DNA of 64,000 nt from Deltaproteobacteria bacterium (GTDB lineage: Bacteria; Myxococcota_A; Polyangia; Polyangiales; Houyiibacteriaceae). The notes below the pieces were generated by a model, which was given only the letters and a program-made list of their open reading frames with translations, ran no database searches and was not told the origin of the DNA. Below are positions 18,155 through 51,500 of the stretch, piece after piece. The stretch's first letter is position 1; every line of letters begins with the position of its first letter. The translations under genes were made by a program, and so were the position numbers. Where the stretch lies: NCBI GenBank assembly GCA_034670305.1, contig JAXMNT010000012.1:1-64000 (forward strand). The letters are read 5' to 3'.

Positions 18155-19246
18155 GTGGCGAAAAGCGACTACTACGAGATCCTCGGCGTGCCGCGCGACG
18201 CGTCCGCCGACGACCTGAAGACGGCGTACAAAGAACTCGCCCGCAAGTACCACCCGGACCGCAACCCGGACGATCCGGAAGCGGAAGACCGCTTCAAGGA
18301 GGCGAGCGAGGCGTTTCGGGTTCTGAGCGATCCGGAGCAGCGCAGACGCTACGACCGCATGGGGCACTCGGCGTTCGACAAGGGCGCCCCCGGCGGCTTC
18401 GACCCGGCCGACCTCGGCTCGGTGGGCGAGATCCTCGAGGGCATCCTCGGCGGTGTCTTTGGTGGCCGCACCCGCCGGACCCGGGGCCGCGACATCCCCG
18501 TCGATGTGCATGTGTCCTTCGAAGAGGCCGCGCTCGGAGCCGAGAAGACCATCACCGTCGAGCGGTGGGACAGTTGCAACCGCTGCGGCGGCAACGGGGG
18601 CGAGCCGGGCACGGTCGTCCGCCAGTGCAACACCTGCAAAGGCAAAGGCGAGGTCCGCTTTCAACGGAACATCTTCAGCGCGACGCGCGCGTGCGGGAAC
18701 TGCGGCGGCACCGGGCACCAGGCGGACACGCCATGCACGGAGTGCGAAGGCAAAGGCCGTGCGGCGGTGCAAGCCGAGCTCACCGTGCGGGTGCCGCCGG
18801 GCGTCTCCCACGGCGCGGTGCAGACCATGCGCGGGGGCGGGGAACCGGCGCCCGGAGGCGCGGGAGACCTGCACATCACGATCCACGTCGAGGCGCACCC
18901 GCTCTTCGATCGCAACGGTGCGGACATCCTGTGCACCGTGCCGGTGAGTTTTCCGCAGGCGGTGCTCGGCACCACGCTGGAGATCCCGACGCTCGAGGGC
19001 AAGGTCCACATGAAGTTGCCGACCGGCACCCAGTCGGGTCGCGTCTTCCGGCTGCGCGGCAAGGGCATCCCGGTCTACGGCGGCATGGGCAAGGGCGACC
19101 AGCTGGTGACGATCATGGTGGAGATCCCCGAGAAGATCACCCGCGACCAGCGCAAGCTGATCGAAGCGCTGGCGCAAGAGATGGGCACGGAGACCCACCC
19201 GCAACGCGCGAGCTTCATCGACAAACTCAAGGGACTCTTTGACTGA
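18155..19246 (+). CDS. dnaJ: molecular chaperone DnaJ
   Basis: J domain (DYYEILGV, HPD), G/F region, four CxxCxGxG zinc motifs, C-terminal domain; GTG start at 18155. Confidence 0.96.
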   Translation: MAKSDYYEILGVPRDASADDLKTAYKELARKYHPDRNPDDPEAEDRFKEASEAFRVLSDPEQRRRYDRMGHSAFDKGAPGGFDPADLGSVGEILEGILGGVFGGRTRRTRGRDIPVDVHVSFEEAALGAEKTITVERWDSCNRCGGNGGEPGTVVRQCNTCKGKGEVRFQRNIFSATRACGNCGGTGHQADTPCTECEGKGRAAVQAELTVRVPPGVSHGAVQTMRGGGEPAPGGAGDLHITIHVEAHPLFDRNGADILCTVPVSFPQAVLGTTLEIPTLEGKVHMKLPTGTQSGRVFRLRGKGIPVYGGMGKGDQLVTIMVEIPEKITRDQRKLIEALAQEMGTETHPQRASFIDKLKGLFD

Positions 19247-20132
19247 CGCCGCCACGTACGAAGTCCCGCCCGACTGGGCCGGGCAACGGCTCGATCGTTT
19301 TCTCGGAACCCACGGCATCTCGCGCGCAGAAGCCAAGCGGCTGGTCGCACGATCCGCCATCGCGGTGCAGGGGCGGCCGGTGCCGAAGGTCGCGTGGATC
19401 TTGCGGGCGGGAGACGTCGTCTCGGTCCTCGCGCGCTCCGCTTCCAACTTCGATCCGATCCCGTCGGACCCCGATGCGCTGACCATCGTGTTCGAGGATG
19501 CCCACTGCGTGGTGCTGCTGAAGCCAGCAGGGCAGGCATCGCATCCTCTGCGCTCCGACGAAGTCGACACCTTGGCCAACGCGCTCGCCGCGTACTGCCC
19601 CGAGACGGTCCGAGTGGGCGAGTCGCGCCGAGACTGTGGTCTCCTGCACCGGCTCGACACCGGCACGAGCGGGCTTCTGCTCGCGGCCAAGACCCGAACC
19701 GCGTTCGAGTGGTTCCGGGCGGCGCAAGCGCGCGACGAGTTCGAGAAGGGCTACGTGGCCCTCTGCGAGGGTGTGCCGGAGCTGGGGAAGATCGAATCGC
19801 CGCTCGCCCACCGAGGTCCCCGGATGGCACTCGACGACGACGGCCGGGATGCCTGCACCGAAGTGCTCGCCGCCGAGCGGCGCGGTGGGATCTCTCGGGT
19901 GGAGCTGAAACTGCGCCGAGGCGCGCGCCATCAGATCCGGGTGCACCTCGCGTCGCTGGGACATTCGATCGTGGGGGACCAGACCTACGGCCAAGGACAC
20001 CCGCTGCTCGTCGAAGGACGCCACGCGCTGCACGCGTCGTCACTGAACGTGCCGGGTCCCGATGGGCCGGTGGAAGTGTCCGCCGAGTGGCCCGCCGACA
20101 TGGCGAAGCTCTGGGAGAGCGAACCGGTCTGA
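19239..20132 (+). CDS. RluA-family (RluD-like) pseudouridine synthase with S4 domain
   Basis: GQRLDRFL (S4), KPAG, HRLDTGTSG catalytic motif, GARHQIRVH, IVGD..YG. Confidence 0.94.
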   Translation: MTDAATYEVPPDWAGQRLDRFLGTHGISRAEAKRLVARSAIAVQGRPVPKVAWILRAGDVVSVLARSASNFDPIPSDPDALTIVFEDAHCVVLLKPAGQASHPLRSDEVDTLANALAAYCPETVRVGESRRDCGLLHRLDTGTSGLLLAAKTRTAFEWFRAAQARDEFEKGYVALCEGVPELGKIESPLAHRGPRMALDDDGRDACTEVLAAERRGGISRVELKLRRGARHQIRVHLASLGHSIVGDQTYGQGHPLLVEGRHALHASSLNVPGPDGPVEVSAEWPADMAKLWESEPV

Positions 20133-20138
20133 TCTGCC

Positions 20139-20408
20139 CTACGGGCCTGGCTCGCTTCGCGAGACTGGCGGCCCTAATTCGCGCCCGTCGCTGCCTGCAC
20201 GTGCTCGCCGCCTCCTGCACTTGATCGAATGAAGAAGCACCTGGGGTGATTGGCGGCTGCGCGCGTCCAGGCGCTCCTATCGGCGCTCTCGGGGATCGAT
20301 TGGGGAGTGCACCAGTTGCTCGGCCTGCGGCCTGCGCAGGTGCACGTGTGGGCGACAATATTCGCTGCCACTACGGGCCTGGCTCGCTTCGCGAGACTGG
20401 CGGCCCTA
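20139..20408 (+). repeat. ~270-bp structured intergenic element, copy A (candidate ncRNA or non-autonomous mobile element)
   Basis: Identical 38-bp direct repeats at 20139-20176 and 20371-20408 (ctacgggcctggctcgcttcgcgagactggcggcccta); internal blocks shared with copies at 42888 and 48250. Confidence 0.9.
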
Positions 20409-40706: not shown

Positions 40707-41656
40707 AGCCGCAGTCCGACGACCTCGTCTTCGCAGAACGGAAGGTCCAACCACGGCGCCCGCGGCCACTGCTTGATCTGAAGCGGGGTACGATCCGGAA
40801 ACGCGCCCGCGTCGAGCAGCCGCCCGTAGTGCACGGTGTGCGCCTGCAGCGAGAGGTCGCTCATCGCACACAGCTCTGCCCGCGTCTCTTCGCGGCGGCA
40901 GTCGTCGATGGCGTGCCCGACCGCGAGGGGATCGAACGTGTCCGGCGGGCGACACCGATCCCCGTTCGGGCGCGCGGGGCCCGGGTCGTTCCCGCCGCGC
41001 CACAACGAGCGGTTGTCCGGGTCTTTCTCGTCCGCGAACGGATCCACGGCTTCCCCGTTGAGCAAGACCGTCAGGTGCACGTGCGGCGGCACCCACGGAA
41101 AGAAGAGCACGCCGTCGATCGCCGAGAAGCCGGTGAGTCCGATGAACTGGCCGCGCGCGACTTCGTCGCCGACCTGCACGAGCGAACGTGCGAGGTGTCC
41201 GCTCATCGTGACGAGTCCTTCGCCGTGGTCGATCACGATCTTGAGGCCGCCGCGGTACATCAGGTTCTCCACCCGCACGACGCGCCCAGGCGCTGGCGCA
41301 CAGAGCCGTGTGCCGACCGGCACGACGAAGTCGGTTCCGACGTGGCTGTTGTAGGTCTGCCGACCTCCGCGAAAATCGCGGGCGTGGGTGGTGCGCACGT
41401 CGTAGCCGCCGGGAGGTGCGTCCGCGTGGTTGAAGAAGTTGAGGACCGGCACCCTCCGGTCGCGGGCACGCCAACCGGCCCAGGTCGCCGGTCCGAGTCC
41501 GGGCCGAAAAATCGCCAGGGAGCTCAGGCCCCATCGACTCGGTTCGCTGAACGCGTCGCCGACGAGCGCCCGCTTGCATTGTTTCAGTCCAGGCACGAAC
41601 GGCCTCAGACCGACCGCCTCGAGAGGTCCGACCCGGTGCTTGAACATGCGGTCCAT
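40703..41656 (-). CDS. M23-family metallopeptidase
   Basis: HVGTD (HxxxD), A.APG.V, IDHG.G..T..GHL, V.VGD.V.RGQ.IG, PHVH (HxH). Confidence 0.9.
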   Translation of the reverse strand: MDRMFKHRVGPLEAVGLRPFVPGLKQCKRALVGDAFSEPSRWGLSSLAIFRPGLGPATWAGWRARDRRVPVLNFFNHADAPPGGYDVRTTHARDFRGGRQTYNSHVGTDFVVPVGTRLCAPAPGRVVRVENLMYRGGLKIVIDHGEGLVTMSGHLARSLVQVGDEVARGQFIGLTGFSAIDGVLFFPWVPPHVHLTVLLNGEAVDPFADEKDPDNRSLWRGGNDPGPARPNGDRCRPPDTFDPLAVGHAIDDCRREETRAELCAMSDLSLQAHTVHYGRLLDAGAFPDRTPLQIKQWPRAPWLDLPFCEDEVVGLRL

Positions 41657-41964
41657 GCCCAACGATGTGTCGCTCCGATCGCGGACCGTCAAGTGTCACT
41701 CAGTGTCACCACTGGCAACCGCCACGAAATGCCTCGTTTGGCACGGTCGGCGTGACGTTTGCCCGAGCGTTTGTGACGGTGTTTCTGCGGCGTGAAGGGT
41801 ACACGCACCGTGCGCTGGGCGTTGCACGCGACGCGCAATCAGCGGACCTGTGCGAAACAACAGCCCCGCTGGATCGTGGGGACGACAGCCTGCCTGCATT
41901 CTGCAACACGTCCCCAAGCACGGACGTGGGTGTATTGTGTTGCTGCTCGAAAGCATAGAAACGT

Positions 41965-42879
41965 ATGCTTCCGATTCGAATGGGCGAGTGGGAGGACGAG
42001 CAGACGGTCGTTGGGGATGCGTCGCTGCTCAAACATGTACGTGCCCCTGGGCGCGACCGCGCCTACGTCATCGTGATCGCAGGTCCGAACGTCGGTGAGA
42101 TGTTCAAGATCGATGCGACCCAAGACATCGGTCGCGGCCGCGAAGCTGGCGTGTCGTTGACCGACACCGAGATCTCTCGTTTGCACGCGCGCCTCGTCGT
42201 CGAGGGCGGACAAATCTTCGTGCAGGACCTCGAGTCCACCAACGGCACCTTCGTCAACGGCGAAGCGGTCCGTCGGCAGCTGCTCGCCGACGGAGACAAG
42301 ATCCAGGTCGGCACGACGACGATTCTGAAGTTCAGCTACCACGACGAACTCGACTCCGAGTTCCAGCGAAAGATGTACGACGCCGCGCTCCGCGACGGGC
42401 TCACCGGTGCGTACAACAAGAAGTACTTCAGCGAGCGGTTGGACGCCGAGGTCGCGTACTCGGTGCGCCACCGGTCGGCCCTCTCCCTCGTGCTCTTCGA
42501 TCTCGATCACTTCAAGAACGTGAACGACAACTACGGTCACCTCGCGGGCGACTACGTGCTCTCGACGATGGCCGCCGGCATCCTGCAGAGCGTGCGCCGC
42601 GAAGACGTCTTCGCCCGCTACGGCGGTGAAGAGTTCGCCGTGCTCAGTCGCGGCGTCGATCAGGCGGGCGCGGAACTCTTCGCGGAGCGGCTGCGCGCCT
42701 GGGTCGAGACCTACCCCTTCGTCTACGAAGACCAGCGTCTGCCCGTGACCATCAGCCTCGGTGTCGCCGCGATGCCCGAATGCGACGTCACCGAACCGAC
42801 GTTGCTCGTCTCCGCCGCGGACCAAGCGCTCTACAAGTCCAAAGAGACCGGCCGCAACAAGGTCACAGTTTCTTCCTGA
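41965..42879 (+). CDS. FHA-GGDEF diguanylate cyclase
   Basis: FHA: IGRG..ISRLHA..DL.STNGTFVNG; GGDEF: D.LTG.YN, DLDHFK.VND.YGH..GD, RxxD I-site (RRED), RYGGEEF. Confidence 0.95.
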   Translation: MLPIRMGEWEDEQTVVGDASLLKHVRAPGRDRAYVIVIAGPNVGEMFKIDATQDIGRGREAGVSLTDTEISRLHARLVVEGGQIFVQDLESTNGTFVNGEAVRRQLLADGDKIQVGTTTILKFSYHDELDSEFQRKMYDAALRDGLTGAYNKKYFSERLDAEVAYSVRHRSALSLVLFDLDHFKNVNDNYGHLAGDYVLSTMAAGILQSVRREDVFARYGGEEFAVLSRGVDQAGAELFAERLRAWVETYPFVYEDQRLPVTISLGVAAMPECDVTEPTLLVSAADQALYKSKETGRNKVTVSS

Positions 42880-42887
42880 TTGGCAAG

Positions 42888-43153
42888 ACGGGCCTGGCCC
42901 GCTTCGCGGGACTGGCGGCCCTAATTCGGCGTCCAGAGCACCTTCACGTGCTCGCCGCCCGAGCATTTGGACGCAGGGAAGAAGCGATTGGAACAACTGG
43001 CGGCTGCGCGCGGTGAAGGCACTCCCGCCGCCTCTATGACGCACTTGGGGAGTGCACCAGTTGCTCGCCCTACGGGCTGCGCAGGTGCACGGGTGGAGCC
43101 GCCTGACTCGCGGGCGCTGTTCGAGGCCTGGCCCGCTTCGCGGGACTGGCGGC
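42888..43153 (+). repeat. ~270-bp structured intergenic element, copy B
   Basis: Direct repeats ggcctggcccgcttcgcgggactggcggc at 42891 and 43125; shared blocks cacgtgctcgccgcc, ggcggctgcgcgcg, ggggagtgcaccagttgctcg...ctgcgcaggtgcac. Confidence 0.9.
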
Positions 43154-43188
43154 TTCGCCGCGCTTGAACTGCGCGGTAGGCTCGGGCG

Positions 43189-44040
43189 ATGAGGCTTTCA
43201 GGGCGGGTGGCGTTGGTGACGGGTGCGACGCGTGGCGTAGGCCGCGGGATCGCGGTGGCGCTCGGCGCCGAGGGCGCCACGGTCTATCTGACCGGGCGCA
43301 CTCGGACGCCGCCAGACCACGCGCTCGGTGGGTCGCTCCAAGAGACCGCGGCCGAGATCGAAGCGCGCGGTGGGCAGGCGGTCCAGTGCGTGTGCGACCA
43401 CGCGAACGACGACGACGTGCGCGCGGTGGTGAAGACGATCGGCGATGCGCACGGGCGGCTCGACATCCTCGTGAACAACGTCTTCGCGATCCCATCCGGT
43501 CCGATGTTCGACACGCCGTTTTGGGAACAGCCGATCGGATTCTGGGACCGCATGCACACTGTGGGTCTGCGATCTCACTACGTGGCCAGCGTGCTCTGCG
43601 CACCGCTTCTGTTGGCCGCGGACGAAGGGGGCGCGCTGATCGCGAACATCTCGAGTTTCGGAGGCGCGAGTTACCAGGTGAACGTCGCGTACGGGGTCGG
43701 CAAAGCCGGCGTCGATCGACTGGCGCGCGACATGGCCCGCGACTTGCGCCCGCACGGGGTGTGCAGCGTCTCGCTCTACCCGGGCATCGTACGCACCGAG
43801 CGGGTGTTGGCAGGCCAGCTGCCGTTCTCCACGGACACGAGCGAGTCGCCGGAGTTCACCGGTCGAGCGATCGCGGCGCTCTCGCTCGATCCCGAGCGGA
43901 TGAAGAAGACCGGCAAGACGTTGGTGGTCGCCGAGCTCGCCAGCGACTACGGCTTCACCGACGTGGATGGCACCCAGCCCGCGTCGCTGCGCGCGCCCTC
44001 CCCCACCCGTGCGCAACCGCCACAAGAGAAGACCCCATGA
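43189..44040 (+). CDS. short-chain dehydrogenase/reductase (DHRS1-like)
   Basis: TGATRGVG, LDILVNN, ISS, YGVGK (YxxxK), LYPG.VRTE. Confidence 0.93.
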   Translation: MRLSGRVALVTGATRGVGRGIAVALGAEGATVYLTGRTRTPPDHALGGSLQETAAEIEARGGQAVQCVCDHANDDDVRAVVKTIGDAHGRLDILVNNVFAIPSGPMFDTPFWEQPIGFWDRMHTVGLRSHYVASVLCAPLLLAADEGGALIANISSFGGASYQVNVAYGVGKAGVDRLARDMARDLRPHGVCSVSLYPGIVRTERVLAGQLPFSTDTSESPEFTGRAIAALSLDPERMKKTGKTLVVAELASDYGFTDVDGTQPASLRAPSPTRAQPPQEKTP

Positions 44041-45200
44041 CGACCACGCTCGAAGACGCGCGTTCGCGGATCGACACGCTGCGCGCCGGCGCCTCCGACA
44101 CAGAACGCAACCGCAAGGTGGACGCCGACCTCTGCGCCGAACTCGCGCGCGCGGGGACCTTTCGGATGCTTGTGCCCAAGTCGCTTGGCGGACTCGAGGT
44201 GGCGCCGCGGGTGTTCGCTGAAACACTCGAAGCGCTCGCACGCGGAGACGCAGCGGTGGCGTGGGTGGCGATGACCGGTTCGACCACGGGCCTGCTGAGT
44301 GCGTACCTCCCGGACGAAGGCGCGGAGGCATTCTTCCGCGACCCCGCGGGCATCTACGCGGGGGTGTTCGCGCCGATGGGTCGGGCGATGGTGTGCGAGG
44401 GCGGGTTTCGGCTCACCGGCCGGTGGCCCTTCACCAGCGGCGTCGACAACGCCGGGGTGCGGCTCGGCGGCGCCCTGGTCTTTGACGAGGGATCGAACAC
44501 GCCCCGGATGCAGACGCTCGAGGACGGAACGGCGATGCCGGAGATCCGGTCCTGTTTCGTGCGCGCGGATCAATCCAACATCGTCGACACCTGGAAGACG
44601 AGCGGCCTTCGCGGCACCGGCAGCCACGACCTGGTCGTCGAAGACGTGTTCGTGCCAGCGGGCCACACCGCGGCGATCGTCGGCGCGCACGCGGTGCGCG
44701 GCGGCGCCGTACACCGGCTGCCGCTCTTCGGGTTGCTCGCCTCCGGCATCGCGTCGGTCGGCCTCGGCATCGCTCGGGCCGCGCTCGACGAAGTGAAGAC
44801 GCTGCTGGTGCGCAAGAAGCCCGGACGCAAGTCGGGCGCCGAGTCGGAACTCACACAAGTGAACTTCGCACGCGCCGAAGGCACCCTCTGCGCCGCACGC
44901 GCGCTGCTGCTGCACGCGCTCGACGAAGCCATGGAACGGACCGCACAGGGCGACCCGATCGACGGAGACACCAAAGCCGCGCTCCGGCTCGCGGCCACGC
45001 ACGCGGCGTGGAGCAGCGCGGAGGTGGTGGACGTGGCGTACCATCTTGGAGGCGGTGCGGCGCTGTACGACAAGAGCCCGTTGCAGCGTCACTTTCGAGA
45101 TGTGCATACGATGACGCAACACATCATGGTCGCGCAGCCCACCCTGAAACCGATCGGCCGGATCCTCCTCGGACTGCCGACCCAAACCGCTCAGCTGTGA
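44037..45200 (+). CDS. acyl-CoA dehydrogenase-fold flavin-dependent monooxygenase (HsaA-like)
   Basis: ATG at 44037 overlaps the SDR stop; VPKSLGGLE, G.RLTGRWPFTSG, DTW..SGLRGTGSHD..VEDVFVP, LQRHFRD.H..TQH. Confidence 0.9.
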   Translation: MTTTLEDARSRIDTLRAGASDTERNRKVDADLCAELARAGTFRMLVPKSLGGLEVAPRVFAETLEALARGDAAVAWVAMTGSTTGLLSAYLPDEGAEAFFRDPAGIYAGVFAPMGRAMVCEGGFRLTGRWPFTSGVDNAGVRLGGALVFDEGSNTPRMQTLEDGTAMPEIRSCFVRADQSNIVDTWKTSGLRGTGSHDLVVEDVFVPAGHTAAIVGAHAVRGGAVHRLPLFGLLASGIASVGLGIARAALDEVKTLLVRKKPGRKSGAESELTQVNFARAEGTLCAARALLLHALDEAMERTAQGDPIDGDTKAALRLAATHAAWSSAEVVDVAYHLGGGAALYDKSPLQRHFRDVHTMTQHIMVAQPTLKPIGRILLGLPTQTAQL

Positions 45201-46474
45201 CCGACGCCGACGATCCGCTGCTCGGGAAAACGCTCGGCGGCTACACGATCGACCGACGCATCGGGTCTGGCGCCACCGGTGTGGTGTACGCCGCCCGCGA
45301 CGCAGCGGAGCGGGTGGTGGCGGTCAAAGTGCTCAACGAAGCGCTGGGCCAAATTCGATCGTTGCGCCGACGCTTCGAACGCGAAGCGCGTGCGCTCTCG
45401 AAACTCCAGCACGACAAGATCGTGCACATCGAAGACTTCGGGGTGGTGGACGAGATCGTCTTCATCGCGATGGAGTACCTCGAAGGCGAGACCCTCGAGG
45501 ACCGAATCACGCGAGAACCGATCGACGCCGAGAACGCGCTCGACGTGACGCGGCAGGTGCTCGAGGGCGTTGCGTTCGCCCACGCTCGGCAGATCGTGCA
45601 CCGCGATCTCAAGCCCGCGAACGTCTTCTTGATCGGTTCGAGCGGCACGGTCTCGGAGTCGAACCCGAGCATGGAAGCGAAGGTCCTCGACTTCGGGTTG
45701 GCGAAGTTCCTGTCGATCGAGGAGCTCAGCCAAGAGGGCACGTTGACCCGCCGAGGACGCGTCGTCGGCACGCCGGCCTACATGGCCCCCGAGCAGATCA
45801 CCGGCGTCTCGCTCGACTTGCGCGCCGACGTGTACGCGGTTGGGATCATGTTGTTCGAACTGCTGGCCGACCGTCGGCCGTTCGATTCCGAGCGGCGGTC
45901 GAAGTTGCTCCGAGCGCACCTCTTCGAAGAGGTTCCCAAACTCGCTTCGGTGCGGCCCGGGCTCGTGGTGGATCCCGATCTGGAGACGGTGGTGCTCCGC
46001 GCGCTCGCCAAGGACCCAGCGGACCGGTACGCGGACGCGGCGGCGCTGCTCGAAGCCCTCGAGCCCTTCGACGGCAGCGCAGCCACGCTCGCGCGTCCGC
46101 CGCGAAAACGAAAACGAACGCGCGCGAACTCCTCGTCCGTCGTGCTCTCTCCCGAGGAGCTCGCCGACGCATCGTCGGAAGACGAAGGACCTGCGACGCC
46201 GGCAGAAGCGTCGGAGCCGAGCATCACCGCGGTCCGAGCGGACGTGCCGCTCGGCGGGCTGCCCAGTGTCCCGCCGCCCTCGAGCGAGACCACCCAGAAG
46301 ACCCGCACAGTGACAGCCAAGACCGAAGAGGTCTCGCGGACCAAAGGGCCACCCAAGCCGGGGGAACCGACCTGGCGAGACGCGGGGTGGGTGACCGTGC
46401 TCGTGTGGATCGTCGGGCTCGGTCTGATGGGTGCGGTGGTCGCACTCGCCGCCTACGCGACCACCGTTCACTGA
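45197..46474 (+). CDS. Ser/Thr protein kinase with C-terminal TM helix
   Basis: GTG overlaps the upstream TGA; GSGATGVVY, VAVK, HRDLKPAN, DFG, GTPAYMAPE. Confidence 0.94.
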   Translation: MTDADDPLLGKTLGGYTIDRRIGSGATGVVYAARDAAERVVAVKVLNEALGQIRSLRRRFEREARALSKLQHDKIVHIEDFGVVDEIVFIAMEYLEGETLEDRITREPIDAENALDVTRQVLEGVAFAHARQIVHRDLKPANVFLIGSSGTVSESNPSMEAKVLDFGLAKFLSIEELSQEGTLTRRGRVVGTPAYMAPEQITGVSLDLRADVYAVGIMLFELLADRRPFDSERRSKLLRAHLFEEVPKLASVRPGLVVDPDLETVVLRALAKDPADRYADAAALLEALEPFDGSAATLARPPRKRKRTRANSSSVVLSPEELADASSEDEGPATPAEASEPSITAVRADVPLGGLPSVPPPSSETTQKTRTVTAKTEEVSRTKGPPKPGEPTWRDAGWVTVLVWIVGLGLMGAVVALAAYATTVH

Positions 46475-46495
46475 CGCAGCTCGTTGAGCCTTGGG

Positions 46496-47617
46496 TCAGG
46501 TTTGTTTCATGCCCAGCGAGCCGCCGACCCGCCGGTCTCGGAGCTTCCAGATCCAACCGTCGTAGAGGAAGTGAAGCATCGAGCCGCCGGTGTAGTAGAC
46601 GAGGTACGCCACCGTGCCGCGCTGATCTCGAAAGCCGAGGTAGGCGAGTCCGAGCACGCCGATGAGAAGCGGCGCGAACACCATGGGCCGTCCGAGAAAC
46701 ACGGCGGCGACGGAGCGGCGCTCCGCTCCAAACTTCCGTTCGCTGAAGTGGTGTACGAACGCGAGGTACTCGAGTGCGTGGGCGGCCCCGAAGCACAGGT
46801 AGCCGACGATGGGTCCGTGCACGAGGAAGACGGCGAGCAACACCAACGTCGACACGAGGAAGATCGTGCGGGGTCTGCGGTCGACCTGTGCGGTGCGCTC
46901 CACCCGCCACCATCGGTACGACACCGTCCCGAGCACGACAGCGGTCACGGCCACGAGCGCGAGGTACGCCGGGTGGGATGTGTAGGGGCGGAGCTCCAAG
47001 ATGATCCGCTGCGCCGAGGTGTGCAGCGTGAACGTCTCCGGCCGAGCCCATGGCAACACGATCGCGAGCGCCACGATGAGCGTCCAGAGCAACGCTCGGT
47101 CGCGTTTGCCGTGCGCTGGATCTCGAAGTGGGCCGCCGGCGCGACCACCGTACGCGCGCAGGATCCCGTAGCGCTGTTGCACCGTGTGCCAGACATTCCA
47201 GAGCCCCGCGGTCGCGACCATCAAGATCGCCGGGTCGAAACGGACCCCGAAGGCCACCCACTCCGCATCGCGCGTCGCGAGGTAGAGGCAGCCGCCGAAG
47301 ACGACGAGCGGTGCGAGCACGAAACGGCGCGCGCGGGTGCGGAACGTGCTGCCGTCGCCGTACACGAGCAGGAAGGTGTAGTGGCGGTGCACCCAGGTCA
47401 GTCCGAGCACGACCGAGATGGCGAGCAGAAGCGCGGCCCGCTCGTAGGCTGGGTGCAGCGGGGCGCGACCGGCCCATTCGAGTCCGTCCCAGCCGAGGCC
47501 CAGACCGAACACCACCCAGACATACACCGGCACCCAGCAGAACCCGAGCAGGGCCACATCGAAGAAGCGGGACCGCAACCACGGCCGGGCCGCCACGTCT
47601 GAGGAGATCGCGCTCAC
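46496..47617 (-). CDS. polytopic membrane protein of unknown function (His-containing TM motifs)
   Basis: ~9 TM segments with H..YT, WH...Q.YG, H..EY, HF.YD..IW motifs. Confidence 0.75.
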   Translation of the reverse strand: MSAISSDVAARPWLRSRFFDVALLGFCWVPVYVWVVFGLGLGWDGLEWAGRAPLHPAYERAALLLAISVVLGLTWVHRHYTFLLVYGDGSTFRTRARRFVLAPLVVFGGCLYLATRDAEWVAFGVRFDPAILMVATAGLWNVWHTVQQRYGILRAYGGRAGGPLRDPAHGKRDRALLWTLIVALAIVLPWARPETFTLHTSAQRIILELRPYTSHPAYLALVAVTAVVLGTVSYRWWRVERTAQVDRRPRTIFLVSTLVLLAVFLVHGPIVGYLCFGAAHALEYLAFVHHFSERKFGAERRSVAAVFLGRPMVFAPLLIGVLGLAYLGFRDQRGTVAYLVYYTGGSMLHFLYDGWIWKLRDRRVGGSLGMKQT

Positions 47618-47674
47618 TGGGCCGCAGGCTGCGGCAAAACGCTGGCGCGCGCTACGACCTCTAGCGCCGAGAGC

Positions 47675-48205
47675 TCAGTCGAGCCGGCGCTGTTCTTCCT
47701 CGAACCGGCGGATCAGCTCTTCGGGAGAAGGCGGGTTCTGGGGGACCGGCGGCAACTCGTAGATCTCGACGCGGGTGCCTTCGGTGCGGGGGCGCGGATG
47801 GATGGCGACGTCCATGCGCACGACCCCGCCCTGGACGCCTTGAGGCACTGCGTTCTCGTAGGTCGCGCCGCCGGACCGCTGGGTCACATGGCCGGTGAGG
47901 AGCCGTGGGCCGAAGTACCGAAGCACCTTCGTGATCGGAACCTCCGTGACGTAGGCGTGGCGTCGTTCGCCCCGCACGTCTTGCTCCTCCAGACCCCGCG
48001 GCAGCGTGAGCCCTGCGACCACCACATCGGATTCGCGGAGGTTGCCTTCTTCGTCGTACAGCGCGTCCGGGTCCTCGGCGTACGGCACCGGCGCCGGAAG
48101 CGCCTCGATGTGCTCCTGCCCCGCCGTCACCTCACCACCGCATGCCGTCCCTACCAGCAAGCACACCCAAAGAGTCGAGGTTCGACGAATCACCGATCGC
48201 GTCAT
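47675..48205 (-). CDS. hypothetical lipoprotein
   Basis: ATG at 48205; GTAC lipobox. The ORF-track extension upstream runs into repeat copy C. Confidence 0.75.
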   Translation of the reverse strand: MTRSVIRRTSTLWVCLLVGTACGGEVTAGQEHIEALPAPVPYAEDPDALYDEEGNLRESDVVVAGLTLPRGLEEQDVRGERRHAYVTEVPITKVLRYFGPRLLTGHVTQRSGGATYENAVPQGVQGGVVRMDVAIHPRPRTEGTRVEIYELPPVPQNPPSPEELIRRFEEEQRRLD

Positions 48206-48249
48206 GATCACAGGGTACGCGTCACCACACCCTGTGCATCTCAAAAATC

Positions 48250-48519
48250 TAGGGCCGCCAGTCCCGCGAAGCGGGACAGGCCCGAATCGCCCCAAGTGGG
48301 AGGGTGACAAGTGCCGCGAGCCTGCGCAGCCCGCAGGGCGAGCAACTGGCGAGCTCACCAAGTGTTCACAGAGCGCCTCAAGGAGCGCCTGGACGCGCGC
48401 AGCCGCCCAATGGATCCCAGTGCTTGTTCAATGCACCTGAGTCATGGGCGGCGAGCACGTGCAGGCAGCGACGGGCGCGAATTAGGGCCGCCAGTCCCGC
48501 GAAGCGGGCCAGGCCCGTA
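48250..48519 (-). repeat. ~270-bp structured intergenic element, copy C (reverse orientation)
   Basis: Plus-strand direct repeats tagggccgccagtcccgcgaagcggg.caggcccg at 48250 and 48483; its reverse complement shares attcgcgcccgtcgctgcctgcacgtgctcgccgcc and ggcggctgcgcgcgtccaggcgctcc with copy A. Confidence 0.9.
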
Positions 48520-48530
48520 TCGCCAGCAAG

Positions 48531-51500
48531 TCAGTCGATGTTGCCGGCCCAGCCTTGCACCTGGGTGTAGGCGATCGGCGCCGGAAGGTTGCGGCTGAAC
48601 TCGGCGATGGAGGCACCGGACGCGGCCGTGCCGCCACCGCTGACCTGCGCGACGAGCTGGTAGTCGCCCACGTTCGAGTCCTGCACCCGCATGAAGCGGC
48701 GGCTGCCCACGTACGGGTCGGTCTCGGAGACTTCGTTGAGCTGCGAACAGCTCGGACGCTGCGTCACGGCCACACCCAGAACGATCTGGTTGTCGAGCGG
48801 CGATGTGGCGCGCACGTAGGTGCCGCTGTCGGCCGGGATCTCGAGGCCACCCTCCGGGAGGGTCGTGCCGGACTCGGAGTCGATGTACTCGACGCCCCAG
48901 ATGCGGCTGTCGCCGTAAGAGCAGGCGTTGAGCGGATCACTCGTCGAACGGAAGGTCGCGAAGTAGGCCTTCGCGTTGAAGAGCTCCAGCGGGCCGGTGA
49001 CCTGCTCACCGAGCTCCAGCGGGATCTCCCAGTTGAGCGTCGCGTCGACGGTCTGGATGCCACCGCTCGCGTTGTACTCGAGGTCTTCCGACATGGAGAC
49101 GACGCGGTTCTGACGCAGCTGGTCGAGCGCGTCCACGTTGCCGGTGGCCTGGAGCACGACGACCTGGCCCTGGCTGTCGGTCGACACGACGGGCGGGAAG
49201 TGTCCGGGCTGGCCGACGGTCGCGGTGCCGTTCCAGTACATGTCGTGGAACGGGTTGGCGTCCCACTCGTCCGGTCGCGACGACGAGAGATCGATGCGCC
49301 ACATGACGCCGTCTTCGTCGGTCGTGAACGCGCGGGTCGCGATGGTGCCGACGTCGCCGGTGAACATCGAGATGCCGCCGGTCAGGGGCGCGTTGAACGC
49401 CCGGTCGTCGAGTTGGCTGATGACCTCACCGGTCGCGATGTCGAGGAAGTAGAGGCGGCGTCCTTCCGAACTCCAGCAGCGCAGACGGTCACGCGCGGTG
49501 GTGGTGCCATCGGTGATCGGCGCCATGCCCTTGCCTCGGCTGAGGCAACCGTTTGGTTCGGTGTAGGTCCCATCGGGGCGCGCTACGGCCACGCCACCAC
49601 AGGTCACCGACGACATGTCTTCGCCGGCGCCGCCAGGGAGAAGCGCGAGCGCGATCTCCTGGAGGTTGCCCGCGTCGTCTTCCGCAAGGACCTGGCCCAC
49701 GCCCGGCACGCCGTACGACTCGCCCATCTGATCGTGGCTCATCTGCCACAGGAACTGCGGGTCGATCGGGTCGGTGACGTCGAGCGCCAAGTAGGCCGAG
49801 CCGCCCCCACGAAGACCGAACATCAGGACGGTGTGGTAGTCGTTGCCGTTGGCGGAGTCGCCGGGACGGCGGCGGAAGTAGACGTCTTTGACGACGGGCG
49901 TGCCGTCGACCATCCACTGGTGGCTGACCTGGGCGGCCGCGAGCTTCGGGAGAAGAATCGGCGGCACGAAGCCCCAGAGTTCCTCACCCGCGGTGTAGGA
50001 ACGACCCGCGTACGGGCCGGCCGTGATGGTGATGTCCTCCGCGATGAACGCGTGCATGATGCCGTCGTTCGATCCGACGTAGACGACCTTGGGCCGGTTC
50101 GCGACCTCGGGCCGGCGGCGGAAGAGGTTGAAGGACTCGTCCGGCTTGTCCTGGCTCGGCGCGGCCACGACGACCGGGGACGAGTGGTAGATGTCGCCGA
50201 GCTTGGCGTCGGGGCGCAGCGCGCCGTGAACCCAGTCGATGACCGCGGTGCGTGCAGCCGACGTGGAGACGCCGAGGACCGCGCGGTCGAGCAACGCGTT
50301 GGAGGTCGAGAACTGCTGCATGCGCAGGCCGCGCTCCACCGGGGTGGGCGCGCTCGTGGTCGGCCGGTAGCCCGTGTTGCGGTCGGTCTCGGTTCCGCCG
50401 AGGCCCGAGCGCGTGCAGGTGTCGCCACCCACGCCCGCGCCGTCTCCGCCTCGACCACTCGCGTCGCCGCCGAGGGACGACGAACCCGTCGCACCCACGA
50501 GGTGGCCGCGCGCGTTCGAACGCGTCGCCGGCACCACGGTCAAGAGGTTCCGGGGCGTCGGGCGGGTGTTGAGGAGGACGTGGAAACGGTCGCGGTCTTC
50601 CACGGCCTGCTCTTCCGGGTTGAGGTCGGCGCTGCACTCGTAGCGGCGACGCTCGAGCACACCGCGCCAGGGATCGCTCGGAAGCGAGGGAAGCTGGAAC
50701 CCGGTGTTGAACTGGGACTGACCCTGAGACGACGCGCCGGGCGCCGCGTTCGCGAAGGCCGGCACGGTGCGGGTCGTGGTGCCCGGGGCCGCGCGGTCCA
50801 GGATGTCGGAGAACGCGCGACGCAGCGCCGCGGTGTCGTCGGTGCGGGGGTCGGAGTCCACGAGGTAGGCGCAGTTGCCACCGGCCACGGCGCAGGTGCC
50901 GCCCGCTTCCGCGATCGAGTTGAGCTCGCCGATCGCCTGGGTGTCCGGCACGTCGAAGCCGACGACATACAGACCGTCGATGAGGCCGTTGCAGTTGCCG
51001 GAGCCGGCGTCGTAGTCACAGAGGGTGCGCGCGATGTCCTGCGAACGGTCGTACGGACACTCCGATCCGGGCGTGTCGCAGTTGTAGGGCGCGCCACGCG
51101 CGTCCGAGTTGGGGTAGCCGTCCGTGAGGAGGATGGCGTAGCGGTCGCGGCACGAGGCGAAGGGGTCACCGACCCCACCGGCGGCGGCGATCTGCGCCAC
51201 GTCGGGGTGGGTGTTGAGGTAGTAGTCGAAGTCGCTGAGCATGCCGGCGATCGGCGTGGGCCCGAACGGACGCGCGCGAAGCAGCGTGTCCTGCACGCGG
51301 TTGTTGATCACGAGCGCGTCCGAGACGACATCGTCACCGACCGAGACGAGCGTTCCGCCCACGCTGAACTCGAGCTGCGCGCCGTTGTCGATCATGTAGT
51401 CGGTGAGACACCCCGGGAAGGTGAAGCGTCGCGCGCCGCCGTAGGAGTAGCCGCCCTGGCCCGACTCCGACCGGCTGCGGTAGTCCGCGTCCCAGCTCGA

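Follow-up and report, generated by a model that had tools for sequence, protein, structure and literature searches.

A dispersed family of hairpin-ended intergenic repeats in a Polyangiales genome, best filed near REP/BIME-type and IS200/IS605-derived elements

Known hairpin repeats and the family reported here

Neisseria NIMEs and pneumococcal BOX elements are longer conserved units bounded by short hairpin or inverted-repeat modules, and they occur in intergenic arrays of variable length. The REP and BIME repeats (repetitive extragenic palindromes; bacterial interspersed mosaic elements) of E. coli and Pseudomonas are built on an imperfect palindrome of 30-40 nt with a 4-nt tag at its foot. 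The cited parts of PMC3733652 and PMC3333891 describe them as extragenic and present in hundreds of copies behind genes, in convergent as well as co-directional settings, with sub-families that differ by compensated stem changes, variable tandem numbers, and Y1 (HUH) transposase genes in the same genome. In E. coli, TnpA-REP binds REPs as single strands and is able to recombine BIMEs, an activity that the authors tie to amplification (PMC3333891, same part). In the IS200/IS605 element IS608, both ends lack terminal inverted repeats and carry subterminal hairpins on the same strand and in like orientation; cleavage on the left takes place 19 nt 5′ of the hairpin, whose foot holds a 4-nt guide (PMC3201880, in the part cited). 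The TIRYT genes and TIRtrons of Di Nocera et al. 2013 have Y1 genes between long inverted repeats, and the cited part of that description (PMC3733652) covers enzyme genes, not the repeat family of this study. Here we compare these systems with a repeat of about 290 bp, present in three copies in a 64,000-nt stretch of DNA from a deltaproteobacterium of the order Polyangiales (GCA_034670305.1, contig JAXMNT010000012.1, positions 1 to 64,000; hereafter the window).

The repeat belongs to a family that is dispersed, mostly intergenic and located at gene 3′ ends, in the form of solo ends, single units and tandem arrays. Compensatory changes preserve its stems, and between sister species it is gained, lost and decaying. 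It is best filed near the REP/BIME-type and IS200/IS605-derived miniature elements, as something that works like them. We interpret it as a lineage-specific, non-coding and non-autonomous family of the REP/BIME/MITE kind (MITE, miniature inverted-repeat transposable element), probably handled as single-stranded DNA by Y1 enzymes. This interpretation has about an even chance of being right; the Y1 route is put first because of the resemblances to IS608 and REPs and one weak association, described below. The original prediction, made from the letters of the window, had offered two possibilities, a structured non-coding RNA family or a non-autonomous element moved in trans. We favour the latter and regard the former as unlikely, on account of 123 dispersed loci with solo, partial and array forms, a range of two species, decay by deletion, presence/absence differences and the lack of an orientation bias.

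Each full element consists of a leader, a tag, a two-step hairpin of 32 nt, an interior of about 180 nt with hairpins H1 and H3, a linker, and a second tag and hairpin. The genome comprises 7.93 Mb in 105 contigs at 68% G+C, and the window is contig C12. The three look-alike copies predicted at 20139-20408 (+), 42888-43153 (+) and 48250-48519 (−), here called A, B and C, are present, with the predicted core-to-core spacing of 232, 234 and 233 bp. Each copy has the 13-nt core of the hairpin twice, which makes six occurrences in the window where shuffles predict 0.26. A copy number of three was an underestimate. The genome-wide BLASTN count that had been proposed gave 60 matches for copy A in its own genome, and a two-round nhmmer search returned 163 hits that merge into the 123 loci. 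Classified by marker motifs, these are 52 solo end modules, 45 single units, 17 partial units and 9 tandem arrays of two or three units each, in which one junction module is common to neighbouring units. The loci contain 164 end hairpins, 80 H1 markers and 69 H3 markers; a pattern search allowing up to 3 mismatches finds 177 end hairpins genome-wide. Eleven of the 123 loci lie within 300 bp of a contig end. In run X1, which holds the source organism, element bins have a contig depth about 80-fold that of single-copy sequence.

Anatomy and base pairing

An alignment was made of 54 units, 33 from the source genome (window copy B included) and 21 from the sister species; nhmmer had found 58 units, and 4 with long insertions were dropped before alignment. 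The aligned units show near-invariant blocks set apart by three variable stretches. With 114 loci anchored on the first hairpin, conservation starts 15 nt upstream of the tag, at a T-rich leader of 15 nt with the consensus ccTTtTTTaTTGcCA. The true start of the copies is accordingly 15 nt further upstream than predicted. At the other border, conservation ends directly after ...GGCGGCCCTA. Leader, tag and hairpin with its invariant tip form an end module of about 55 nt, in the same orientation at both ends. The anatomy of the full element thus identifies this module as a terminal direct repeat, and a solo locus as one module. The tag reads CTAC in 78 of the 177 end modules and NNAC in 115. Arrays also contain a second type of linker, and their internal hairpins lack the CTAC tag. 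The parts of the window copies are as follows.

20124..20408, + strand: copy A, whole element (leader, tag, 5′ hairpin, interior, linker, tag, 3′ hairpin); nhmmer 271 bits
20124..20138, + strand: copy A leader, 15 nt; conservation across 114 loci is at background by −16
20130-20132, + strand: TGA stop of the upstream RluA-family pseudouridine synthase gene (open reading frame 19239-20132; Pfam and NCBIfam matches), within the copy A leader
20139..20176, + strand: copy A 5′ terminal repeat; CTAC tag at 20139-20142, TTC loop, ends in TA
20143-20147/20170-20174 and 20151-20155/20159-20163, + strand: outer and inner stems of the copy A 5′ terminal repeat
20194..20271, + strand: copy A hairpin H1 (RNAalifold); base stem 20194-20200/20265-20271, three of its pairs changing on both sides
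20207-20212 and 20252-20257, + strand: upper part of copy A H1, GCCGCC pairing with GGCGGC; variable apical part 20213-20251 (variable part, mean z −0.70)
20307..20345, + strand: copy A hairpin H3 (RNAalifold and covariation); GTGCACC 20307-20313 with GGTGCAC 20339-20345, apex GGCC-TGC-GGCC 20322-20332
20346..20370, + strand: copy A linker, its last ~15 nt similar to the 5′ leader
20371..20408, + strand: copy A 3′ terminal repeat, a direct repeat of 20139-20176
42871..43153, + strand: copy B, whole element; tag AGAC, 3′ terminal repeat truncated after GGCGGC
42877-42879, + strand: TGA stop of an FHA-GGDEF gene, within the copy B leader
48250..48535, − strand: copy C, whole element; tag ATAC
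48533-48531, − strand: TGA stop of a PilY1-domain gene, within the copy C leader

Selection on a folded structure, which the original prediction had put forward, is supported at the level of base pairing. We tested five helices with 42 pairs across the 54 units. In all, 96.4% of cells pair, and both partners change in 11 of the 42 pairs; column shuffles average 4.7 ± 0.9 such pairs, and none of 500 reaches 11. When the partners were slid by 1-3 columns, at most 4 pairs had both-sided changes. Module variants are shuffled among close copies, so that the independent compensatory events are fewer than the cell counts suggest.

The individual compensations proposed from the three window copies fared differently. 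At the H3 apex, the exchange of GGCC/GGCC for GCCC/GGGC is borne out, with 38 G-C, 16 C-G and no unpaired cases in the alignment, and 41 G-C, 26 C-G and 2 unpaired among the 69 genome copies. The change from CCTGCAC/GTCCAGG to CCTTCAC/GTGAAGG at the base of H1 also holds. Two further compensated variants exist there, and the four versions of this stem are fully or nearly complementary. In the inner stem of the end hairpin, CTCGC/GCGAG and CCCGC/GCGGG are indeed a compensated pair, but a third version, GCTCG in 11 of the 54 units, breaks two pairs while the tip is kept. The supposed compensation between GCGCTCC/GGAGTGC and GCACTCCC/GGGAGTGC is only a one-sided change from G·U to A-U. This stem, stem 2 of the prediction, pairs in 96% of cells and competes with the base of H3; both-sided changes are absent from all 7 of its pairs, and 395 of 500 shuffles do equally well.

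What had been called a 39-nt loop is a weakly conserved hairpin extension of H1. This variable part has a weak tendency to fold in that way (mean z −0.70 for 62 distinct sequences, +1.39 for copy A), and its apical motif is conserved. Folding energies of whole elements compared with shuffles gave z values of −0.42 for plus-strand RNA, −2.03 for minus-strand RNA and −0.92 for plus-strand DNA. At 68% G+C these energies are unremarkable, and the case for structure therefore rests on covariation and not on energy.

Features of the loops and stems point in different directions. On the minus strand, the invariant tip of the end hairpin reads GCGAAGC. GCGNAGC is an extraordinarily stable DNA mini-hairpin (Tm 76.5 °C for GCGAAGC) that is found at single-strand replication origins (PMC13037366, in the part cited). 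The apex loop of H3 is T-N-C on the plus strand in 67 of 69 copies, with N split approximately as G 44, A 13, T 10 and C 1; this equals G-N-A closed by C-G on the minus strand, and d(GNA) loops are reported to be very stable (PMC3201870). Tip and apex together are suggestive of DNA. Of opposite sign are two invariant T·G columns and the G·U of stem 2, which favour the plus strand. With the two invariant columns set aside, stem G·T and A·C counts are 10 and 6, and pick no strand.

Several other classes of sequence were considered. The 195-bp stretches between end hairpins are conserved, with a mean column identity of 75% over the 54 units. A CRISPR array was rejected because these stretches leave no unique spacers. 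As to coding potential, judged by eye, unit lengths are not multiples of three, 1-2-nt indels occur in the variable parts, and the one minus-strand frame inspected holds a stop codon. Scans for promoter and terminator consensus sequences around copy A gave 0 and 0. A CUGAAGA-like motif in the H1 tip raised the possibility of a self-cleaving ribozyme; no conserved partner motif was seen by eye, and there was no Rfam hit.

Placement beside genes, host range and turnover

Genes were called with a codon-usage caller (5,994 genes, 88.6% of the genome covered), and only 6 of the 123 loci overlap a called gene by more than 30 bp. For the 111 loci with both neighbours called, the setting is convergent in 41, co-directional in 31 with the element in sense and 24 in antisense, and divergent in 15. 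The intergenic spaces of the whole genome are 880 convergent, 2,934 co-directional and 978 divergent. The family is thus enriched at gene 3′ ends (41/111 convergent against 880/4792). There is no clear sense bias in co-directional settings.

The contact with genes is close. Where the upstream gene is co-oriented, its stop codon ends 1-18 nt before the tag, within the leader, in 54 of 76 cases, and all three window copies show this arrangement. A convergent gene facing the 3′ end has its stop within −26 to +1 of the element end in 25 of 66 cases. In the sole informative comparison (L052), the sister-species leader exchanges the last sense codon and stop of the gene for a synonymous codon and another stop. 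In E. coli, REPs are reportedly close to stop codons too. Judging by position, with the hairpin a few bases behind the stop codon, the copies probably also influence the 3′ end of the upstream gene's mRNA, in the manner of REPs. A run of GCGGAA-type hexamers downstream of a gene differs in length between the two species (C10:159720-159800, L052).

Two copies start 12-13 nt after tRNA genes on contig C89. The tRNA genes there form a dense cluster, with at least 26 genes within ~6 kb interleaved with repeat copies (L017, equal to C89:10345-13604; L023; L022). Such tRNA arrays are unusual. No recurrent gene family was found beside the loci, only large paralogue families such as 65 protein kinases; the gene content, with these 65 Ser/Thr kinases, FHA proteins, sigma-54 activators and a PilY1-domain gene, looks myxobacterium-like.

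The original prediction had raised the possibility of an undescribed family, and no family described in Rfam matched it. Rfam gave no match at gathering score in the whole window; for copy A at E up to 10 the best was Pseudomon-Rho (15.1 bits against a cut-off of 45, E 7.2). No description of it turned up among the papers listed for REPIN/RAYT (RAYT, REP-associated tyrosine transposase) with myxobacteria or for interspersed repeats with terminal direct repeats, a survey of main texts. Forty relatives gave four short chance-level matches and no real one. The H3 pattern, with up to 3 mismatches, was present in 0 of 400 other genomes of the order (source genome 69, reversed control 0), the exact end-hairpin pattern had no hit in one-genome-per-species contigs, and plasmid and phage collections had no match. 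A metagenome scan identified 58 contigs that carry the family. Their flanks are 84-97% identical to the source genome, mostly 88-95%, and they thus derive from a sister species. Such a relative is present in two marine runs, where the repeat is tens of times deeper than its flanks. Within the collections searched, the family was found only in the source species and in this sister species of ~92% identity, to which it appears to be restricted.

Sites differ between the two species in several ways. A solo module of ~78 nt in the sister species (L083, L056) is absent from the corresponding place on C102 here, without a trace, and one full unit there (L089) stands against unrelated DNA here. Seven sites have a unit in the sister species and a solo module or fragment here (L063, L067, L068, L069, L079, L087, L092). 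At L053, L052 and L077, a truncated or partial copy there corresponds to the leader alone, nothing, or a solo module here. The array on C70 has ~3.5 units here and fewer there (L047); the pairs with a solo end in one species and a full unit in the other are L068, and L060 with C40. The sister-species contigs had been selected for a perfect hairpin, which biases the direction of these presence/absence differences. Six sister-species contigs (L061, L066, L082, L091, L093, L094) have flanks that map to different contigs here, the break falling at a repeat copy, either through chimeric assembly or through genuine rearrangement in which copies recombined.

Copies also differ in a patterned way. In the 22 closest pairs (90-99.9% identity), the H1 tip has 0.154 differences per column and pair, the second variable stretch 0.068, the end hairpin 0.057 and the conserved interior blocks 0.008-0.027. 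Between copy A and either of its two nearest relatives there are five differing positions, every one of them in the tip. At one locus shared by both species (L061 and C2), the interior is ~97-98% identical by eye and the adjacent flank ~91%; window copy C and its counterpart at the same place are ~84% identical in a flank of 94.7%. The concentration of differences in the tip suggests per-copy constraint or selection, gene conversion, or both.

Y1 enzymes, core-sharing repeats and competing explanations

No cognate enzyme lies in the window, as had been noted; the genome contains 11 genes above the Pfam Y1_Tnp cut-off, all of them elsewhere.

C20:45490-46206, Y1 gene
C31:83254-83982, Y1 gene
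C38:23445-24161, Y1 gene
C68:18356-19063, Y1 gene
C1:179877-180584, Y1 gene
C11:63972-64721, Y1 gene
C59:42484-43194, Y1 gene
C14:72618-73319, Y1 gene
C55:37993-38721, Y1 gene
C15:125750-126499, Y1 gene
C63:38937-39650, Y1 gene

These genes have 232-250 codons, and the HUH motif and the tyrosine are visible in their translations. They are nearer to the model of the REP-associated tyrosine transposase (E 1e-9, below its cut-off) than to that of IS200. They fall into three sequence groups, and each gene lies in a unit of ~1.28 kb bounded by inverted repeats of ~150-300 bp. So many copies suggest an active family of the insertion-sequence kind and not one domesticated RAYT. Relatives occur in Planctomycetota metagenome-assembled genomes at 45-51% identity, which does not have to mirror the taxon of the host; one such genome has three (49-51%) in the same layout flanked by terminal inverted repeats (TIRs). 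Two or three further Y1 fragments were seen on C36, C52 and C105.

The search for a repeat copy beside a Y1 or RAYT gene, which the original prediction had recommended, was negative: 0 of the 11 are flanked by the repeat. A BLAST comparison of unit A with the 11 loci and their 700-bp flanks revealed one degenerate end hairpin near C15 and nothing else. The 13-nt core gives a more indirect connection. It has 299 instances genome-wide and is common to at least three other hairpin repeat families with different, self-complementary outer stems (for example C15:126850-127000, C55:39100-39180, C20:45080-45230 and C16:139100-139215). One of these, of ~80 bp with AATATT at both ends, abuts the outer ends of 3 of the 11 Y1 units (C15, C55, C20), as a tandem pair in two of the three cases; 5.1% of the genome lies within 1 kb of a core. 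The link between Y1 genes and the repeat family is a weak association, through a core shared with the neighbouring repeats only.

Two smaller repeats were noticed alongside the family. A palindromic mini-element of ~57 bp (core GAGGGGGAAGGGTTCCCCCTC) is found at ~25 places (for example C14:133754, C1:95926, C37:51757/52022/52096, C70:21097 and C91:13537). About 23, counted by eye, lie inside family units at two fixed positions, in the interior just after the 5′ hairpin and inside the end hairpin, and two lie at one fixed point in the inverted repeats of Y1 units (C15, C11). It looks like a site-specific parasite of other repeats. A repeat of ~75 bp, GTTTGTTGTCCGAGGGGGATG...CCTCCTCCCCAAC, occurs ~20 times, once as three tandem copies on C2 (examples at C2:163754-163980, C17:14392, C19:111245 and C23:4489), and its ends are related to the nested mini-element.

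The comparison with described systems can now be made part by part. An E. coli-type REP is a high-copy, extragenic palindrome of 20-40 nt; here a 32-nt hairpin has 177 instances and few loci overlap genes. E. coli REPs have GTAG 5′ of the foot (PMC3333891, in the part cited), whereas the element has CTAC there, and on its minus strand GTAG stands 3′ of the foot. A REPtron has its RAYT flanked by the same REPs, unlike the Y1 genes here, three of which are abutted by a different, core-sharing repeat and which are multi-copy. REPs occur as close inverted pairs, and a REPIN is two inverted REPs forming one long hairpin; the end hairpins here are always direct, head-to-tail and 232-234 bp apart around a structured interior. 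By tag position, REPtron arrangement and inverted pairing the element fails as an E. coli-type REP, and is a variant distinct from the classical one. From NIMEs and BOX it differs in sequence and host, and its bounding modules are direct repeats with tag and leader. It resembles the ends of IS608 in that its subterminal hairpins are like-oriented on one strand, terminal inverted repeats are missing, the left border is 19 nt 5′ of the hairpin foot, and the foot bears a tetranucleotide (PMC3201880, in the part cited); the right border, by contrast, is 2 nt after the foot and not 10. A miniature of the IS200/IS605 kind would insert 3′ of a fixed target of 4-5 nt and leave no duplication; here the few usable sites showed no target duplication, and the border motif is diffuse, with weak CAC/ACG and GCTT enrichment and no defined tetranucleotide. 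Such a miniature would also have ends like those of an autonomous element in its genome, but the ends here lack sequence similarity to any Y1-carrying unit. The 11 Y1 genes between long inverted repeats resemble TIRYTs and TIRtrons.

In the explanation we favour, the element would have multiplied as DNA, now or formerly. By analogy with IS200/IS605, whose ends its layout would match, its hairpins would most likely be recognised as single-stranded DNA, in trans, by RAYT-like Y1 transposases. Recombination between two end modules would give solo ends and altered array lengths. A number of observations weigh against this account. The only trace of the repeat near the Y1 genes is the degenerate copy, ~440 bp from one of them, and BLAST finds no similarity between the element and the long inverted repeats that bound the Y1 units. 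The tag differs from that of E. coli REPs in sequence and reads CTAC in less than half of the end modules. Folding energy is no better than that of shuffles for plus-strand RNA or DNA. The replication-strand test is weak (46 vs 28), on a tiny skew (median 0.014) that does not track gene strand. Most "empty" sites keep a few element bases and are thus deletion remnants, none of the filled/empty pairs compared has sharp unambiguous borders or a defined target, and metagenome contigs are possibly chimeric at repeats. Lastly, differences between the closest copies lie almost solely in the H1 tip, which a purely selfish, decaying element does not predict.

This last pattern is among the reasons to consider a cis-acting RNA element kept by the host at mRNA 3′ ends, as part of the upstream gene's transcript. 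The hairpins would block exonucleases, make the transcript more stable or adjust translation termination, and purifying selection would keep the blocks. The stop codon inside the leader in 54 of 76 co-oriented cases and the enrichment between convergent genes fit such a role, as do the L061/C2 pair, more alike inside than in its flank, and the stem-2 G·U in 42 of 54 units, which is a C·A mismatch on the other strand. A host-kept RNA is nevertheless hard to reconcile with 31 sense against 24 antisense copies between co-directional genes, with no terminator-like or promoter-like site in the scan around copy A, with absence from all other genera searched, with the many truncated or internally deleted copies, and with a copy C that is less conserved than its flank. 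We consider it unlikely, although with some hesitation. Quite improbable, in our estimate, is a dispersed repeat that was never, or is no longer, transposed by an enzyme and is spread or homogenised by recombination, gene conversion and slippage. Shuffled module variants accord with it, the H3 apex pair and the inner-stem type differing even within 96%-alike pairs; solo ends and array-length differences are expected from recombination between 55-nt direct repeats, and no recurrent neighbouring gene family was found. Recombination alone, however, does not seed more than 100 new intergenic sites, nor does it account for the sister-species solo end at a site without a trace here.

Direct terminal repeats, solo ends, arrays with a single junction module, and a solo end in one species facing a full unit in the other at the same site (L068, L060 vs C40) would also be produced by a small integrative cassette, a 233-nt circle with one end module that recombines site-specifically with a chromosomal module. 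Integration would then give hairpin-interior-hairpin, repeated integration arrays, and excision solo ends. Against this stand the lack of a recombinase gene recurring beside the loci and the fact that solo ends would still need a route to new sites. No joint or circle was found among the contigs of four runs on 41500-49500; these contigs break at repeats, bridge none and are uninformative on circles or empty sites. We regard the cassette as very unlikely. Trans-acting structured RNAs, with variable loops as guides in the manner of bridge or guide RNAs, seem hardly probable at all. Conserved stems with variable apical segments and conserved unpaired blocks are what such RNAs would show. In 62 units, however, the variable segments show no preference for their own flanks over others (mean longest match 6.40 vs 6.52 ± 0.09), and nowhere else in the genome do they have a match better than E 0.01. 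Rfam gave no match, the copies exceed 100 with many broken, and no partner gene is nearby. The variable tip as a guide was rejected for its lack of excess matches to its own flanks or the rest of the genome.

A further, distinctly unlikely possibility is that the family has become a domesticated partner of its host. It would be a composite DNA element handled by Y1 enzymes, with interior blocks selected per copy and a leader that supplies the stop codon, and it may set the 3′-end behaviour of ~100 genes. This would be a head-to-tail, long-interior form of the REP-RAYT association. If true, element, core-sharing repeats, nested mini-element and multi-copy TIR-flanked Y1 genes would make up a layered system.

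For annotation, the repeat copies matter in that they break assemblies and supply stop codons to real genes. REP-type repeats are common, while their spread and function are settled for few lineages, mostly Proteobacteria. Here one genome combines a long head-to-tail variant, core-sharing relatives, a mini-element at two fixed sites and 11 RAYT-like genes. With a sister species in which different sites are occupied, this makes a tractable natural system for asking which Y1 enzyme handles which hairpin and for testing whether selection favours such repeats through their effect on gene ends.

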